Below are positions 6,830 through 18,855 of a stretch of 48,713 nucleotides of DNA, piece by piece. Below the pieces are notes generated by a model. The model was not told the DNA's origin. It did not search any database and saw only the letters and a program-made list of their open reading frames with translations. This DNA is from a virus (taxonomy: Duplodnaviria > Caudoviricetes): positions 1 through 48,713 of the IMG/VR virus record IMGVR_UViG_3300016471_000749. One strand, 5' to 3'. Positions within the stretch are counted from its first letter, which is position 1; the number at the start of each line of letters is the position of its first letter. Position numbers and translations under genes: made by a program.

Positions 6830-6858
6830 TTGACAAATATTGAATTAGCATTTATAAT
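6830..6858 (+). promoter_or_regulatory. sigma70-type early promoter
   Basis: TTGACA (6830-6835), 17 bp, TATAAT (6853-6858), followed by AGGAG RBS and ATG at 6884. Confidence 0.85.
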
Positions 6859-6883
6859 TATATTATGTACTTAGGAGATTCTC

Positions 6884-7276
6884 ATGACTATGCATCTAAT
6901 TGGTCCTTGGTTGTCTACGACAGGTAAGAAAAAAGGTAAAATGAAATGGCGTTCTGCAGAACAGAAACGCGAAGCAGAACGATTAGAAGCAGAATGGCAG
7001 AAACTTGTAAACAAACATGCCTCGGTGGCTGAGAGGTCCAAAGCAACAGTCTGCAAAACTGTAAAACCGCAGGTTCAAATCCTGCCCGAGGCTCCAAGAT
7101 CTACTGCACATATTCCTAGTAAAGATACTGGAATTAAGGGTGCGGTCACAATTAAGCAAACTCCAAAATATACAGGCACTAAAATTTTAGGCATTGGTAC
7201 TATGCACAAGTCTAATGCTGTCCCCGTCTTTAGTGACGACGAAGCAAAAGATATTTCTACGATGAGGCGCAATTAA
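6884..7276 (+). CDS. conserved phage hypothetical protein carrying a nested tRNA
   Basis: Own promoter and AGGAG RBS; C-terminus YTGTKILGIGTMHKSNAVPVF...AKDISTMRR recognised from a T4-like phage hypothetical family. Confidence 0.8.
   Translation: MTMHLIGPWLSTTGKKKGKMKWRSAEQKREAERLEAEWQKLVNKHASVAERSKATVCKTVKPQVQILPEAPRSTAHIPSKDTGIKGAVTIKQTPKYTGTKILGIGTMHKSNAVPVFSDDEAKDISTMRRN
7019..7096 (+). tRNA. tRNA-Cys (GCA) with encoded CCA
   Basis: Acceptor GCCTCGG/CCGAGGC; discriminator U73 followed by CCA; D arm GCT-GAGAGGTCCAA-AGC; anticodon arm ACAGT-CTGCAAA-ACTGT; T arm GCAGG-TTCAAAT-CCTGC. Confidence 0.92.
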
Positions 7277-8061
7277 TGAAAAAAATAGTTTTAGTAACCG
7301 GAGGTTTCGATCCAATTCATTCTGGACATATTAGATACTTTCAAAGAGCGAAAGAACTTGGAGATATTTTGTATGTTGGACTCAATTCCGACGAATGGTT
7401 GACTAGGAAAAAAGGTCGTCCATTTTTACCTATGCGCGAAAGATTGTCTATAGTTCAAAATCTTCGCATGGTGGACTTTACGATAGAATTTAATGATGAT
7501 GATAATTCTGCGAAAAATGCTATCAAGATGGTCCGCGAAATGCATCCTAATGATGAGATCATTTTTGCGAATGGCGGTGATCGAAATGCCAAGAATATCC
7601 CAGAGATGGATTTGAAAGATGATATTAGATATGAAAATTTAACCTTCGCATTTGGTGTAGGCGGTGAGGATAAATCTAATTCTTCATCCTGGATTCTAGA
7701 AGAATGGAAATTGCCTAAAACTGTTCGTCCTTGGGGCTATTATCGAGTGTTGCACGAACCTCACACTAAGTGTAAACTTAAAGAATTGACAGTTCTACCC
7801 GGACTTTCTTTGAGTATGCAAAAGCATAAGCATCGAAGCGAATTGTGGTTTGTTTCGGAAGGTAAGGCATCAGTATATACTATAAATCCAAAGAATACAG
7901 ATTTAGAAAAAATTGGCGATTACATTCAGAATCAAACTTTATTCATTCAAGAGGGAGAATGGCATCAACTTAGGAATGAAACATCTAAAGATTTAAAAAT
8001 TATCGAAATCCAGTATGGAGATGCTTGTTATGAAGAAGATATTGAAAGGAGACCTGTATGA
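7276..8061 (+). CDS. cytidylyltransferase-like (RfaE-II/TagD) domain fused to a mannose-6-phosphate isomerase-type cupin
   Basis: TGGFDPIHSGH (HxGH), GLNSDEWLTRKKG, ANGGDR; C-terminal RPWGYY, LSMQKHKHRSELW, IIEIQYG...E.DIER. Confidence 0.85.
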   Translation: MKKIVLVTGGFDPIHSGHIRYFQRAKELGDILYVGLNSDEWLTRKKGRPFLPMRERLSIVQNLRMVDFTIEFNDDDNSAKNAIKMVREMHPNDEIIFANGGDRNAKNIPEMDLKDDIRYENLTFAFGVGGEDKSNSSSWILEEWKLPKTVRPWGYYRVLHEPHTKCKLKELTVLPGLSLSMQKHKHRSELWFVSEGKASVYTINPKNTDLEKIGDYIQNQTLFIQEGEWHQLRNETSKDLKIIEIQYGDACYEEDIERRPV

Positions 8062-8333
8062 CAATTCCAAGTAGCCCCGAGGATCGTAAAGCAATTTTCG
8101 ATGCTTTGCGTGAATTTTCAAACTCTATGACTCGTATTGAGGCAGAAAGAGATTTAATTAAAGAAATTATTAATAATACTTGTGAAAATTTTGAATTAAA
8201 CAAAAAAACCTTCCGCAAAATGGCTAAAGTTTATCATAAGCAAAATTTTAACAAGGAAAAAGAAGAACACGAAGAATTTGAAACCATGTACGAAGTTATC
8301 ACCAATACCACAACGATGAGAGATGCAGCATGA
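8058..8333 (+). CDS. dsbA: T4 DsbA-like dsDNA-binding protein
   Basis: E.SNSMTRIEAERDLIKE...FRKMAKVYHKQNF..E..E...FE..Y pattern. This is the phage dsbA, not the thiol oxidoreductase. Confidence 0.8.
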   Translation: MTIPSSPEDRKAIFDALREFSNSMTRIEAERDLIKEIINNTCENFELNKKTFRKMAKVYHKQNFNKEKEEHEEFETMYEVITNTTTMRDAA

Positions 8334-10530: not shown

Positions 10531-11063
10531 ATATTTTTTACTTACATAATGATCCTGCAGAATGTGCTAAATTGCACAACGATAAACATGTTGTGAAGAT
10601 GATACTTGAATATGGACAACTAATGTCGACTGCTCATCGAGTTTTAGATGGCGATCTTTACTATGGCAAAACCACAAATGGAAGAAACATTAGACGGTGG
10701 AGATTAAATGATGAACGAGAATCTGTCTTATGGAAAGCTAGCCATATACAACACCCTTCGGGTATTTGGGTGAGAAGTTCAGCTTGGAATTATCTATGGC
10801 TGAAAGATCTTTGGTTAGAACTTATGAAAGAATATACATACCGATACGGGAAAGTACACTCTGCAGAAAGAATGAAAAAATTCTTCGTACAGCTTCCGAA
10901 TAACATTCCCAGGCATTCTCCTTTTACCGAACCTACTCCTGCAATGCCGGAACAATACAAAGTTTCAGACAATTCTTTACAGTCATATATAAATTATTAT
11001 GTAGGAGCGAAAAGACATCTCGCTTCTTGGAAAAATCGTAATGTACCATCTTGGTATGTTTAA
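10527..11063 (+). CDS. pyrimidine-dimer DNA glycosylase / endonuclease V family protein
   Basis: MNIFYL...A..H.DKHVVKMILEYGQLMSTAH, H..HPS..W, EYTYRYGKVH, AMP. Confidence 0.8.
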   Translation: MNIFYLHNDPAECAKLHNDKHVVKMILEYGQLMSTAHRVLDGDLYYGKTTNGRNIRRWRLNDERESVLWKASHIQHPSGIWVRSSAWNYLWLKDLWLELMKEYTYRYGKVHSAERMKKFFVQLPNNIPRHSPFTEPTPAMPEQYKVSDNSLQSYINYYVGAKRHLASWKNRNVPSWYV

Positions 11064-11080
11064 TTGTTGAAAGGAAAATA

Positions 11081-11464
11081 ATGGAATCGCATAAAATTCA
11101 ATTAGAAGAAGGCTTCACTGATGATAGAGGCCTAATTCTACCAATCGTACACGACTTTGCCAATGTTCAAATGATCTATTCATACAAAGGTGCTATCCGT
11201 GCAAATCATTATCACAAAACAGATTCTCACTATTGTTATATGGTGACGGGAAAAGTTCGTTACCTATGGAGAAATCACGGTGAAGATACTATCCATGAAG
11301 AGTATTTCACAAAAGGACAAATATTCCTTACAGGTCCGAATATTGATCACGAGATGATCTTCGAAGAGGATTCTGTTATGGTTGTGGTATCAGAACACAA
11401 ACGCGACGCTTCAACCTACGATGAAGATATTGTAAAGATTGAGCCACTTCATGAGAAATTTTAA
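11081..11464 (+). CDS. cupin (NDP-sugar epimerase/isomerase, RmlC/FdtA-like)
   Basis: F.DDRG, GAIRANHYHK...H, P...H cupin motifs; AAGGA RBS before ATG at 11081. Confidence 0.8.
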   Translation: MESHKIQLEEGFTDDRGLILPIVHDFANVQMIYSYKGAIRANHYHKTDSHYCYMVTGKVRYLWRNHGEDTIHEEYFTKGQIFLTGPNIDHEMIFEEDSVMVVVSEHKRDASTYDEDIVKIEPLHEKF

Positions 11465-12587
11465 TTACTTAAAATGCAGATGTTGCGATAACGAGAATTT
11501 AGTTAATTGGTTACGATTACCAGATTCTCCTGTTGCGAATGCTTTATTTGATAAGCCGGATTATACTAGATATCCCCTAGTATTAAACTACTGTGAACAG
11601 TGCGGGCATCTACAATTGGCAGCTGCCCCAGATCCCGATTCTGTATTTTCCAAATACAGATATAGATCCGGAGTATCTAAATCTTTTCAGAAACATTTTT
11701 CTGATTATGCTTTAGATGTCGTACAAAAAGAAGGTCCCGGCAAAGTATTAGAAATAGGCAGCAATGATGGATATCTTTTGCAGCAGTTTGCTAAACATAA
11801 CTGTGAAGTGGTAGGTGTTGAACCTTCAGACCTTCTTCGATCCGATCATGAGGAAAAAGGTGTCGAGGTTGTTACTGATTTCTTTACTTCATTTTTAGTT
11901 GATCAATATTCTTGGGAAAATAAATTCGACGTAGTATGTGCAAATAATGTACTAGCACATATCCCTGATACGTATGAAGTGATGCGAGCAATCAGTAAAG
12001 CTTTAAAACCCAACGGAATACTTGTTGCAGAATGCGGAGATCAAAAAGGAATCATTTCTGGCGAATACCTAGATAATGTTTATCATGAGCATATTGATTA
12101 TTATTCCCCTAATTCATTCGCAACACTAGCTAAACGGGCAGGCCTTGTTGTCGAGGAAGTTACTCAGATTAATACACATGGTGTTAGTTTTAGAATTATT
12201 GCTCGCAAGAAGGACGGCGAATCAGTAACTAGTTTAGATGCAATTGATCTGATCAAAACTAAAGAAGATGTTCTTTCAAGTATAGAAAAACGTAAACAAA
12301 GAATTTTATCAGAGTTAAAGGATAGAGAATTTGTTGCGTATGGTGCGGCTGCTAAAGCAGTAACATCTCTATACTCGTTAGGTATCATTGACGAGAAACT
12401 AATAGGCGTCGTAGATGATAACGATCTGAAACAAGGTATGTTTTTCCCGGGCACAAATATATTGATTGAAAATCCAGAAAATATTAATCCTAATTCAGTG
12501 GTATTGGTTGCTGCTTGGAATGTCTTCAATGATATCAAGGAAAAATTATTATCTAGAGGACATAGGGGAGAAATACTCTGCATGTAA
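11451..12587 (+). CDS. NDP-sugar C-methyltransferase (Zn-binding N-terminus, SAM-dependent)
   Basis: CRCC...C..CGHLQL Zn site, VLEIGSNDG, ANNVLAHIPD, YHEH, YGAAAK, KQG.F.PGT, AWN. Confidence 0.88.
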   Translation: MRNFNYLKCRCCDNENLVNWLRLPDSPVANALFDKPDYTRYPLVLNYCEQCGHLQLAAAPDPDSVFSKYRYRSGVSKSFQKHFSDYALDVVQKEGPGKVLEIGSNDGYLLQQFAKHNCEVVGVEPSDLLRSDHEEKGVEVVTDFFTSFLVDQYSWENKFDVVCANNVLAHIPDTYEVMRAISKALKPNGILVAECGDQKGIISGEYLDNVYHEHIDYYSPNSFATLAKRAGLVVEEVTQINTHGVSFRIIARKKDGESVTSLDAIDLIKTKEDVLSSIEKRKQRILSELKDREFVAYGAAAKAVTSLYSLGIIDEKLIGVVDDNDLKQGMFFPGTNILIENPENINPNSVVLVAAWNVFNDIKEKLLSRGHRGEILCM

Positions 12588-13312
12588 CTATTATAGGTAC
12601 AGGTAAATGGGCGCAGCTTATTGAAAGTAAATTGCGCTTATTATCTATACCTTGTAGTATGATTGGTAATAATAAAAATTTTGCAGATTTTACTAGAAAT
12701 GAAATAGTAAAATCTAAACACGGTGGGGCAGTAATTATAGCATCTTCCACCAAGGATCACTTACAAGATACTGCACTTGCTTTAGAATTAAATCCAAGAT
12801 ATATATTGGTAGAAAAAGGATATACTAGTGCAGAAGAAATACAGATAGTAAAATCCTGCGTTACTAACATACCGGTAATGTATTTAAGTCAGTATAGATT
12901 TTCTGGCATATTTAGTATGCTAAGAAGTTATAATATAGGAAAAATTTTAAAATGTAATTATAATTGGGAAATAGACAGGGGTGAAATTTCAGAATGGTTT
13001 TACCATATATTGTCTATAGATAATTTTTTAAAGGGTAAAATTAATTTTATGAATGTCGAAGATAATGGAACAGGAATATTAGATGATGTATCTAACTATA
13101 GTTTAACTAAAAATGAGAATAGAAATTTACTCATAGATTTAGAAACGAAAGAATATGTAGTTAAGATAAAATTAGGTAAAACTAATTCTTTAGAAATAAC
13201 TAAGAGAAACGATTTTACGAAAATGTTGGATTTTCAGAATGAAGATTGTTTATTCAAGCAACTTCAGGAAATTTTCCTTTTTGAAAATTTTGAATTATTA
13301 GAAAGGCTATAA
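12578..13312 (+). CDS. Gfo/Idh/MocA-like NAD(P)-dependent oxidoreductase (divergent), probable CTG start
   Basis: The Rossmann motif VTIIGTGKWA lies upstream of the called TTG (12632); IIASST..H and ILVEK motifs present; GGGGAG SD lies 7 nt before CTG at 12578. Confidence 0.65.
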   Translation: MHVTIIGTGKWAQLIESKLRLLSIPCSMIGNNKNFADFTRNEIVKSKHGGAVIIASSTKDHLQDTALALELNPRYILVEKGYTSAEEIQIVKSCVTNIPVMYLSQYRFSGIFSMLRSYNIGKILKCNYNWEIDRGEISEWFYHILSIDNFLKGKINFMNVEDNGTGILDDVSNYSLTKNENRNLLIDLETKEYVVKIKLGKTNSLEITKRNDFTKMLDFQNEDCLFKQLQEIFLFENFELLERL

Positions 13313-14311
13313 ATGAAACTTTTGATTTTGGGTTCAGATGGATTTATTGGTTATCACTTGACAGATTCTATTCTTCAAGATGATAGATTTGCAGATTGGG
13401 AAATTACAGGCGTAGATACAAATAGAACTAGGACAAATATGTTGCCAGAAAGTTCTAAATTTAAATTTTTACAATATAATATTGTCACCGATCGGCAGAT
13501 TGTAGATGAACTCATCAAAGCATCGGATATTATTATGCCTTTGGTTGCTATTGCTACTCCTAAGGTTTATGTAGAAAGACCAATGGACGTATTTGAATTA
13601 GATTTCGAAGAAAATCTAAGGATAATTAAACTGTGCCATAAATTAAATAAACGTATTATTTTCCCATCTACATCTGAGGTATATGGTAAAAGCATAGCAC
13701 CCTTCAATGAAGAAGAATCGGATTTAGTGTATGGCCCTATCAAGTATTCTAGATGGATATATGCTTGTTCAAAGCAATTGCTGGATCGTGTGATTTTTGC
13801 ATTGGATCAAAAATCTAAATTTAGATTTACATTGTTTAGACCTTTCAATTGGGTAGGTCCATATCTAGATTCTTTGGAATCTTCTTCTGAAGGTTCTTCT
13901 AGATTGATTACTCAACTTATCAATGATGCTATGATCAAAAAAGAAGTGACCCTAGTTGACGGTGGTCATCAGAAAAGATGCTTCACCGATGTTAGAGATG
14001 GTGTGGCCGCCCTAAAACTAATTCTTTTAAATGAGGAATCCTCGCAAGGTAAGATATTTAATGTCGGAAACCCTTGGAACGAATTCTCCGTGAGAGAAGT
14101 TGCTATGAAAGTAATTTCTGAATTAGAATCTGATAAGATGAAGGGGGAGAAGATAGAGATTAAGGTTAAACCTAGCAAAGAATTTTATGGTGCGGGATAT
14201 CAAGATGTTTCCAGTAGAGTTCCGAGTATCAACAATATCGGAAGTTCTTTAGGTTGGGCTCCAAAATATACCTTCGAAGAGTCTCTTAAAAACATACTTA
14301 GTAATATATAA
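13313..14311 (+). CDS. stand-alone ArnA-type UDP-glucuronate oxidase/decarboxylase (extended SDR)
   Basis: ILGSDGFIG.HL, PLVAIATP, VFELDFEENL, FPSTSEVYG, RWIYACSKQLLDRVI (YxxxK), RPFNW.GP, YG.GYQD...RVP. Confidence 0.88.
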   Translation: MKLLILGSDGFIGYHLTDSILQDDRFADWEITGVDTNRTRTNMLPESSKFKFLQYNIVTDRQIVDELIKASDIIMPLVAIATPKVYVERPMDVFELDFEENLRIIKLCHKLNKRIIFPSTSEVYGKSIAPFNEEESDLVYGPIKYSRWIYACSKQLLDRVIFALDQKSKFRFTLFRPFNWVGPYLDSLESSSEGSSRLITQLINDAMIKKEVTLVDGGHQKRCFTDVRDGVAALKLILLNEESSQGKIFNVGNPWNEFSVREVAMKVISELESDKMKGEKIEIKVKPSKEFYGAGYQDVSSRVPSINNIGSSLGWAPKYTFEESLKNILSNI

Positions 14312-16646: not shown

Positions 16647-16668
16647 TTTAAACTATTGAAAGATATTA

Positions 16669-16677
16669 TAATAAATA
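16669..16677 (+). promoter_or_regulatory. T4-type late-promoter-like motif upstream of the tmRNA
   Basis: TAATAAATA, the same motif found at 30898, 35691, 48245 and 25311 (-). Confidence 0.55.
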
Positions 16678-16681
16678 ATTG

Positions 16682-17041
16682 TATGATCGTATGAAGTTGA
16701 TCAAAAAGTGTTCTGGACGGCGGTTCGATTCCGCCCAGGTCCACCATAATGGAGATTAGTATATGGATGAGTCATACTCGCTTTGGAAATTTATTAACAT
16801 AGATTGTATTAATTATATCTGTATTAATAATTATTCAAAAGCACACGCTAGATCCATTATGATGGGCCTGATCTGGTTTCGACAGGGCAAAGAGTAGAGA
16901 GATGGACGATCCGGTAGGCGATGACCGTAAATCAAGCAAAACCTATAAACGCCAATGATGACGTTTTTTACGAGGATCTACGCTTAGCAGCGTAACCCGT
17001 ACGGGGTCTTCCTGGTTCGCCTTGTTTCCCAATGAACCAGG
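16682..17041 (+). ncRNA. ssrA: circularly permuted (two-piece) tmRNA; tag ANDDVFYEDLRLAA
   Basis: Acceptor piece comes first: T arm GGCGG-TTCGATT-CCGCC and CAGGTCC-A-CCA ending at 16746. Coding piece begins GGGCCTGATCTGGTTTCGAC at 16864, giving the G3.U70 Ala determinant. Tag ORF 16951-16995 ends LAA*. Outer ends are approximate. Confidence 0.92.
17011..17041 (+). other. hairpin at the 3' end of the tmRNA coding piece (processing site or terminator)
   Basis: CCTGGTTC...GAACCAGG inverted repeat, preceded by the palindrome CCCGTACGGG. Confidence 0.5.
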
Positions 17042-17058
17042 TCTAATACGGAGATATT

Positions 17059-17661
17059 ATGGCTTTTGCAGATAATTTATATGAAGTAGTTAAAGGGGCA
17101 GTTTCTCCTGAAGTTTTAAATCATTGCGATATAGAATTTGAATTGCTGAAGAAGGTGATGTTTATTTCTAATAATGTTACCGAAGATAACAAGTATGCTT
17201 TCAATGATGATCAAATATCAAATAGTTTTTCTTACTATTCTCCTTTATGTTTTGAGACACTTGCACAAACTTTACTTCCTACAATGGAAGAAGTTACCGG
17301 TAAAAAGTTATACCCAACCTATACCTATGCAAGGATATACTACAATGGTGCGGAAATGGCGCGCCATACCGATCGACCTAGTTGCGAATTTTCTACAACA
17401 GTTTGCATATCTAATGATCCTAAGTTTGGTGCATGGGATATTTGGTTTAAAAATAAAGAGGGCAAAGAATTTCCAGTATGGCTAGAGCCAGGTGATGCAT
17501 TAGTATATAAAGGAGATATTCTAGAGCACTGGAGAAATCCATATGGTGGAGAAAGGCAATGTCAAGCATTTCTACATTATGTGGACAAGTTTGGTAAGTA
17601 TAGAGATTACAAATATGATAGAAGACCTTATATAGGATTGCCTGCGAGTTATAAAAAATGA
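17059..17661 (+). CDS. 2OG-Fe(II) oxygenase superfamily protein
   Basis: PTYTYARIY, H.DRPSCE (HxD), PGDALVYKG...HWR, Q.FLHYV. Confidence 0.85.
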   Translation: MAFADNLYEVVKGAVSPEVLNHCDIEFELLKKVMFISNNVTEDNKYAFNDDQISNSFSYYSPLCFETLAQTLLPTMEEVTGKKLYPTYTYARIYYNGAEMARHTDRPSCEFSTTVCISNDPKFGAWDIWFKNKEGKEFPVWLEPGDALVYKGDILEHWRNPYGGERQCQAFLHYVDKFGKYRDYKYDRRPYIGLPASYKK

Positions 17662-18191
17662 ATACATTAAAAGAATTAACTGCCGAAAAACATCGAGAGG
17701 CCGAAAATCAACCCTTTATAAAATCTATTTTTTCAGGAAAAGTCGATTCGTTGAAATATGCAAACTATTTGTATCAACTAATATTTGTATATGGTGCAAT
17801 TGAGGGGGCGGCAGTAAATTTAAAACTTTTAGACGGTATTGAAGATATAAAAAGGGCAAAATTTATAGAAGAGGATTGGTTAGAATTAATAGGTGAAAAT
17901 ACTAGTAAATTACTTCCATCAACAAAAAAGTATATGGAATATTTACAAATGGGTACCTTTTGGGGAGATAAGAAAAAGGTATTGGCTCATTTATATGTAA
18001 GACATATGGGAGATTTATTTGGCGGACAAATGTTAGCTAAATTGCTACCCGGAAGTTGTACAATGTATAAATTTGAAAATAGAGAAAATCTTATACTTGA
18101 AATGAGAAAACGAATAGATACATCATTAGCAGATGAAGCTAACTTAGCTTTTCAATATAATATAGATATAATCAAGGATTTTAATGATTGA
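17658..18191 (+). CDS. heme oxygenase (phage HemO/Ho1-like)
   Basis: LKELT...H..AE (proximal His), AHLYVRHMGDLFGGQ distal helix. Confidence 0.9.
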   Translation: MNTLKELTAEKHREAENQPFIKSIFSGKVDSLKYANYLYQLIFVYGAIEGAAVNLKLLDGIEDIKRAKFIEEDWLELIGENTSKLLPSTKKYMEYLQMGTFWGDKKKVLAHLYVRHMGDLFGGQMLAKLLPGSCTMYKFENRENLILEMRKRIDTSLADEANLAFQYNIDIIKDFND

Positions 18192-18855
18192 CATTTGGCC
18201 GCAGGTAACTAAGCTTGCAGATAAAATTATAGGTAAGTTTGATCAATATGAAAAGATTACTCTAAATGAAAAGTATCAACATAACCAAGAAGGCATAGAT
18301 TGGAATAATCATCTATGGGTATCAGATAAATTCCGCAGAGCACATATTGAAATATTGGATGCTAGAGAAAGTAAAAAGATGTGGGTTATGCATATGACCA
18401 TTTTCCCGCATTTTGATTGTCCCGATCCTATTTTTGGTTTTGATATAGTTTGCGGTAAAAATAAAATTACGGGAGCCTTTCATGATTTTTCCTATGTGGA
18501 TGAATCCGATCTTTACGAATGGTATCTTAATAAAATGTCCACTATTAATTGGGAAAAACCTAGACAACTACCGCAATGGGCATTGAATATCTTTAGTCCT
18601 CAAATGGTTGCTGCAGGAAATATTCAAACTCAGGAAGAGTTGGATAAATTAATAAATGTCTTTATAGACAATTTAGATCATTACATTTATAATATAGGTA
18701 ATAAAAAGAATTATCTAAATTATTCGATTAAACATAATTATTATTGTGCTAATCAAAAAGAAAATCCCCATACCCCAGCAATGATGGAAACTTTTGGTAT
18801 AGATAAAAATCTTTTTAGACAATTTATGGACGATGTACTTTTCCCGGAGACCTAA
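18184..18855 (+). CDS. ferredoxin-dependent bilin reductase (PcyA/PcyX-like)
   Basis: FRRAHIE, MH..IFP, PIFGFDIV.GKNKITGAFHDFS, RQLPQWA..IFS, YC.NQK.NPHT. Confidence 0.88.
   Translation: MIDIWPQVTKLADKIIGKFDQYEKITLNEKYQHNQEGIDWNNHLWVSDKFRRAHIEILDARESKKMWVMHMTIFPHFDCPDPIFGFDIVCGKNKITGAFHDFSYVDESDLYEWYLNKMSTINWEKPRQLPQWALNIFSPQMVAAGNIQTQEELDKLINVFIDNLDHYIYNIGNKKNYLNYSIKHNYYCANQKENPHTPAMMETFGIDKNLFRQFMDDVLFPET

Follow-up and report, generated by a model that had tools for sequence, protein, structure and literature searches.

A tRNA-Cys nested in frame in the linker of a T4-like phage gene, and recurrent linker tRNAs in its protein family

How can DNA that encodes a complete tRNA also serve as the middle of a protein-coding gene on the same strand? 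The question is raised by a 48,713-nucleotide viral sequence (IMG/VR record IMGVR_UViG_3300016471_000749, positions 1 to 48,713; hereafter the window), in which a tRNA-Cys at 7019–7096 lies within ORF 6884–7276, both on the + strand. The window belongs to a T4-like myophage and carries genes for an RNase H-like exonuclease, DsbA, a ligase, a late-promoter regulator, a helicase loader, a ssDNA-binding protein and baseplate components, and the metagenomes that contain it are mainly freshwater. The two-piece tmRNA (RF01850) and the presence of homologues in phages of Delftia and Acidovorax lead us to infer a betaproteobacterial host. Regions 11051–14311 and 17059–18855 of the window hold a cluster of cupin, methyltransferase and nucleotide-sugar epimerase genes, and genes with the PHROGs labels ferrochelatase and ferredoxin oxidoreductase lie next to the tmRNA.

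The sequence-only reading that drew attention to this locus had proposed a full tRNA-Cys(GCA) cloverleaf, and this is borne out by ARAGORN, which calls a 78-nt tRNA-Cys(GCA) on the + strand, and by the Rfam model RF00005, which scores it at 66.1 bits (gathering score 29). The stems comprise 7/7 acceptor, 3 D-stem, 5/5 anticodon-stem and 5/5 T-stem pairs, all 20 of which are Watson–Crick, with a G-A at the fourth D-stem position. A GCA anticodon, U73 and CCA are identity elements of tRNA-Cys, and all three are present, the CCA being encoded. The fold has a z-score of −2.68, with 2 of 200 shuffles equally good, and the centroid fold of the full mRNA retains the acceptor, anticodon and T helices. 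Immediately 5′, the predicted leader has U at −1 and A at −2. The tRNA forms codons 46–71 of the ORF, and the only Cys codon of the protein is, as had been claimed, U33-G34-C35 of the anticodon loop.

Around this tRNA lies a gene with its own expression signals. A perfect sigma70-type promoter (TTGACA-17-TATAAT, 12/12) at 6830–6858 and an AGGAG Shine–Dalgarno sequence at 6873–6877, 6 nt 5′ of the ATG, were found on the + strand as first described, and the promoter is kept in tRNA-free orthologues. The TAA of the gene overlaps the ATG of the next in a TAATG at 7274–7278; the downstream gene (7276–8061, +) encodes a cytidylyltransferase-like and mannose-6-phosphate isomerase (cupin) protein. A candidate terminator at 8085–8110 was rejected as being at chance level (1 match against 2.1 expected). 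The 130-residue product of ORF 6884–7276 matches PHROG 27048 over its full length (residues 1–129, E 1.2e-28), a family with members in the cultured phages phiW-14 (gene 114), ACP17 and BUCT-ZZ01; the phiW-14 region contains no tRNA, unlike the window. Homologues made up 7953 of 8000 scored candidates, and a profile search gave 1594 family clusters at 50% identity. Homology thus lies both upstream and downstream of the tRNA, rather than being confined to an ORF downstream of it, which agrees with the earlier view that this is no shadow ORF. No Pfam family, PDB sequence match or usable ESM Atlas match was found for the protein.

Members of the family share a three-part layout: the N-terminal part is basic and contains a predicted helix, the C-terminal module is invariant, and the linker between them is modelled at low confidence. 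In the window gene, codons 1–45 (6884–7018, +) contain a conserved N-terminal motif, a basic stretch and a predicted helix (residues 25–45), and double as the predicted 5′ leader of the tRNA, while the module YTG...G...HKSNAVP...MRR occupies 7169–7273 (+) and is predicted to adopt a small hairpin-plus-helix fold. AlphaFold models the whole protein poorly (pLDDT 65, pTM 0.31), with the linker at low confidence. A 44-residue model of the C-terminal module reaches a pLDDT of 83; its best structural match, below significance, is to a C2H2 zinc-finger-like fold (Z 2.7, rmsd 3.8, 35 residues aligned), and it has no Foldseek match at E ≤ 0.001. Three tRNA-free orthologues (L002–L004) indicate how the tRNA entered this layout. 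Since they share the promoter, start and stop–start overlap of the window gene, and can be aligned with it from promoter to TAATG with the linker as the main difference (~20 codons versus the 26 tRNA codons of the window gene), the tRNA-Cys, judged by this alignment, took the place of a ~20-codon linker. The linker tolerates ORF lengths of 117–181 aa across the family.

The nearest relatives of the window gene retain the same insert. A tRNA-Cys-derived linker peptide was found in 36 proteins, in 21 distinct forms (the members of nine 90% clusters, and P0064; the assemblies are those of JGI, ENA and Logan), with flanks that have diverged to 79–86% whole-protein identity. All 21 peptides can be encoded with every stem pair intact, the base pairs of these relatives being inferred from the peptides. 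The 19 distinct substitutions include five that by themselves would disrupt a pair; none of these occurs without the substitution at its pairing partner, which gives the compensatory amino-acid pairs S2P+E24G, Q18L+L22Q, Q18R+L22S and T10A+V15A. Random sets of 3–6 substitutions are fully stem-compatible 24–6% of the time. The Cys linker peptide thus seems to drift within the limits of RNA structure. Alignment of homologues, suggested with the initial description as a check, showed relatives that keep the tRNA in frame at a variable linker, with compensatory stem changes.

Two departures from this pattern were observed. Six of the 21 peptides (P0003, P0004, P0006, P0275, P0282, P0288 and cluster mates) carry C12R, meaning that anticodon-loop position 33 is no longer U; such copies could be decayed, have a changed anticodon or be nuclease-evading variants. 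In P0064, on a 583-bp contig, the N-terminal part is swapped for a peptide resembling more translated tRNA, placed before the Cys segment, and read from the peptide this extra unit looks like a Trp-like tRNA.

Is the arrangement particular to this lineage? In a sample chosen by the C-terminal motif alone (120 loci, of which 2 failed the motif filter and 118 were kept), linker tRNAs occurred in 4 of the 118 family loci among the matches listed and were absent from 114, so the arrangement is optional. A first scan for a T-loop plus the motif had turned up Pro, Ala and Ile tRNAs in the corresponding place in distant members. Two wider scans, which required a T-loop and the downstream motif but not an open frame, returned at least 119 viral and at least 120 metagenome loci. 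Among the matches listed, 223 of 239 loci had an ARAGORN tRNA and 220 of the 223 were open through all their tRNAs, 137 carrying a single tRNA, 70 a pair and 13 a set of three. The initial description, drawn from the window alone, did not include this wider pattern of tandem arrays of many tRNA types in one linker. The three closed loci among these matches were L262, L266 and L331, the last of which looks broken; L262 and L266 (250–324) have a tRNA-Asn with in-frame stops directly 5′ of a short ORF consisting of the C-terminal module only.

Deduplication of the listed loci, which are related, redundant and mostly from one clade, left 150 distinct segments, which comprise 21 tRNA combinations and 15 type/length/phase classes, with 10 anticodons specifying nine amino acids. 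Of the 127 distinct nested tRNAs, 125 are crossed by an open family frame, as against 41 of 254 cases for the other two frames (a zero-length row at a contig end, L221, was left out), while among free-standing tRNAs 119 of 363 frames are open across the tRNA and 0 of 363 when the flanks are included. Taking the 15 classes as roughly independent at a chance of 1/3 each gives ~1e-7, a figure that is approximate as the loci are related. Of 148 distinct complete ORFs, 141 have the family N-terminal motif in frame. It had been stressed that the window tRNA begins on a codon boundary and, at 78 nt, is exactly codons 46–71. The description is correct, but the boundary start is incidental, as free-standing phage tRNA-Cys is also 78 nt and relatives nest tRNAs of 72–96 nt in all three phases; its proposed significance was rejected on the latter ground.

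Several further members of the family bear on the range of forms. Weak in-frame tRNAs of 27–31 bits (L190:3094–3170, L334:1601–1675 and L310:270–340) look decayed, and may be tRNAs turning into plain linker. L197, L201, L322 and L353 have long extra linker segments upstream of a nested tRNA-Pro; these are possible older tRNA remnants, and those of L197, L322 and L353 gave no Rfam match. L044, L050, L206 and L330 contain nested RNAs of 92–96 nt that ARAGORN calls as tRNA-Ile(UAU), that of L206 also having a weak, below-threshold tRNA-Sec score of 30.5 bits. No GenBank phage match to the family spans a tRNA-bearing allele. A GTDB scan found 12 family loci in MAG or environmental-bin contigs, 2 of the 12 with tRNA-Pro, and these are probably mis-binned phage DNA; the same probably holds for L419:394–470, a nested tRNA-Pro in a family gene on a 725-bp contig from a MAG labelled Acidimicrobiales.

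Variation within the gene separates two kinds of constraint. Across 24 Arg+Pro alleles, the variable columns at codon positions 1/2/3 number 15/9/23 in the upstream block, 14/15/15 in the tRNAs and 9/8/29 in the C-terminal block. The same holds more widely: in the four commonest architectures C-terminal variation falls mostly at third codon positions, the upstream block shows third-position bias in 3/4 (the Pro-only set being saturated at 24/24/24), and the tRNA segments have none. Single-step changes in the tRNAs are mostly non-synonymous (synonymous/non-synonymous 4/14, 9/26, 10/20 and 7/19). Pairing is nevertheless maintained, with 99.1% of pairs kept in nested Pro (36 sequences) and 99.7% in nested Arg (41 sequences), and 15/21 and 10/21 pairs, respectively, changed on both sides. 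Covariation of both exceeds all 500 shuffles and all slid controls, although relatedness can inflate the shuffle comparison, and some of the covarying pairs may have come in with donor tRNAs instead of arising in place. On these substitution patterns, the flanks are constrained as protein and the tRNA part as RNA.

These data, together with the contigs themselves, effectively refute a shadow ORF or an assembly chimera. tRNAs are repeats able to join unrelated contigs, and L331 looks broken, but an identical contig from another study covers 6989–7276, fully bridging the 3′ junction of the tRNA (it has only 30 letters before the 5′ junction, one under the bridging threshold), and relatives ~80–85% identical, from a further study, bridge each tRNA/ORF junction. 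With the junctions bridged by contigs from other studies, an assembly artefact at 7019–7096 was ruled out; the 36 Cys-type proteins from JGI, ENA and Logan, the third-position bias on both flanks and the open frame of 220/223 listed loci argue in the same direction.

A tRNA that landed once, lost its use as RNA and survives as a tolerated linker peptide would be consistent with the decayed in-frame remnants of relatives, with the low-confidence linker of the AlphaFold model and with the accepted range of 117–181 aa. This is very improbable for the window gene, however, as its tRNA is intact, and the Cys lineage has four compensatory pairs and no unavoidable broken pair in 21/21 peptides while its flanks diverged. 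Somewhat less remote, yet still improbable, is a cloverleaf that acts only within the mRNA, as a processing signal, stability element or enzyme decoy, and is never a charged tRNA. RNase P reads tRNA stems, and the C12R variants keep their stems without U33, as this explanation would allow. Against it, the anticodon is invariant within each type of nested tRNA, CCA is encoded in 124/127, the spacers of tandem copies are mostly 2–7 nt, like those of ordinary arrays, and as many as three different tRNAs would be superfluous as one cleavage signal.

We now turn to readings in which both products are made. That which we consider rather probable, on the strength of sequence comparison, is that a variable, disordered linker behind a strong promoter would act as a cargo bay for tRNAs, and that the transcripts would be divided between translation and excision. 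The promoter at 6830–6858 would give an early transcript carrying host gene and tRNA, and ribosomes would read through the cloverleaf on some copies. On others, host RNase P would cut at 7019 and exonucleases would trim the 3′ side to the encoded CCA, the latter being an established step of tRNA processing; the excised tRNA-Cys would then be charged. The cut message would end as a non-stop fragment of 45 codons, severed from the downstream genes. The partition between protein and tRNA could be set by ribosome cover, or by translation coming first and processing late in the life of the message. The initial proposal that a transcript yields the protein or the tRNA but not both is accordingly too strict, as one molecule may be translated first and processed later.

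Bacterial RNase P prefers U at −1 (PMC10731613), a preference that the window leader matches. Across the family, U at −1 is scarce, being found in 15/178 nested tRNAs compared with 120/143 free phage-array tRNAs, a difference confounded by lineage; it occurs in 4/9 tRNAs outside the ORF among those listed from scanned contigs. Stop avoidance fails to explain this scarcity, and lineage may. The cargo bay is favoured by the U at −1 of the window leader and by the gathering of tRNAs within the ORF instead of its flanks, in loci chosen by a T-loop. The scarce U at −1 elsewhere counts against it, as do the 114/118 listed loci that are tRNA-free, the decayed in-frame copies, the C12R change in 6/21 Cys peptides and the closed frame in 3/223 listed loci.

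A regulated version of the same idea is conceivable but doubtful. Here, T4-like phages would hold a translated, swappable tRNA array in an early gene as a translation-gated reserve: ribosome traffic would keep the cloverleaf unfolded until stalling, due for example to host tRNA-cleaving defences or starvation, allowed the bared message to fold and RNase P to release the tRNA, whereupon the protein would drop and the phage tmRNA would clear the non-stop ribosome. The same model has been put forward as a hypothesis for selB/selC in PMC8124441, and phage tRNAs have been proposed to counter host tRNA depletion or cleavage, as set out in PMC10264068, PMC11464382 and PMC11555353. The concentration of tRNAs inside the ORF rather than beside it also fits (146 versus 10 in 438 kb of flank across 113 longer loci, whose selection by a T-loop close to the motif makes at least one tRNA inside an expected outcome), as does the tmRNA of the window, and the weak −1 leaders of most nested tRNAs could slow cutting. 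On the other hand, the identity of the cargo varies freely (21 combinations), most of the family lacks tRNAs, and the window leader itself has U at −1. Nor are codons read by the nested tRNA over-represented upstream of it: AGA occurs 0.04 times per ORF with Arg-UCU and 0.25 times without. Attenuation or sensing through cognate codons was rejected on this basis, and on the lack of a Cys codon upstream of the window tRNA. As the cargo varies freely, most members are tRNA-free and upstream cognate codons are not enriched, a cargo-specific switch is disfavoured. Of the two options raised initially, a processing-controlled switch or a tRNA inserted into a tolerant linker, the second has the support of the alignments, and nothing pointing to a dedicated switch emerged.

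The tmRNA might also have a part in the cargo-bay reading, by rescuing ribosomes on cut host-gene message. This phage-encoded two-piece (permuted) RNA lies at 16654–17086 (+), is recognised by ARAGORN and Rfam RF01850, and specifies the tag ANDDVFYEDLRLAA; its AT-rich intervening segment of ~105 nt apparently contains an inverted repeat. The 15 runs listed as containing the window sequence include no RNA-type datasets.

Where did the cargo come from? The closest free-standing tRNAs to that of the window are 78-nt tRNA-Cys in phage arrays, which are the likely donor type on sequence similarity. These arrays (L028–L041) resemble the nested tRNAs in their 78-nt tRNA-Cys type, short spacers and encoded CCA, and their eight distinct tRNA-Cys sequences keep all 20 pairs, 10 of them covarying; they differ in being intergenic, with 0/121 having a frame open over tRNA and flanks. 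Recombination would have put a free-standing phage tRNA-Cys in the place of the linker, and insertions that lost the frame would have been eliminated, since the protein would need both ends. In the best trees, most array-bearing alleles form one large clade apart from the freshwater Cys alleles, and the latter are interspersed among tRNA-free alleles. AU tests on 84 columns, using 84 of the 147 rows of the larger tree, rejected neither a single clade uniting all carriers (p = 0.054) nor a single Cys-allele clade (p = 0.19). The different tRNA types must have been acquired separately.

The nearest known parallel is the alphaproteobacterial tRNA-Sec gene selC, which lies within the selB ORF (Mukai 2021, PMC8124441). 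That article presents the case as the first of its kind in bacteria, with a model that is bioinformatic only, and hypothesises that processing yields a non-stop mRNA and represses the host protein. The two arrangements share a whole sense-strand tRNA inside an open, conserved ORF whose stop codon runs into the following start codon, remnants left in certain lineages, and the same proposed non-stop mRNA with its protein-versus-tRNA outcome. They differ in that selC is a dedicated tRNA, with a length in most cases divisible by 3, within the C-terminal extension of the elongation factor that serves it, whereas the phage tRNA-Cys lies in an internal linker of a non-SelB host gene with conserved modules on both sides, and its family carries ordinary tRNAs with 10 anticodons, in three phases and in tandem arrays of up to three. 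By analogy, the phage locus works like the selB/selC arrangement but is not a member of it. PMC8124441 also cites a whole tRNA-Lys in cox1 of Armadillidium vulgare mitochondria, in direct orientation as in the phage; this differs in being a single case, with a 60-nt tRNA, in a compact animal mitochondrion. No report of a whole tRNA nested in a phage ORF was found in the literature searched, which included few subscription papers and no supplements.

A widespread phage family thus carries ordinary tRNAs, singly or in arrays, within coding sequence at more than 100 distinct alleles, and tRNA-free, intact and decayed natural versions coexist within it. Rules that bar overlap between tRNA and CDS annotations lose real genes or real tRNAs in environmental phages. 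At 393 bp, the host gene makes competition between translation and tRNA processing on a single transcript directly testable, and the family indicates that a tRNA sequence can be recruited as a protein linker in any phase.
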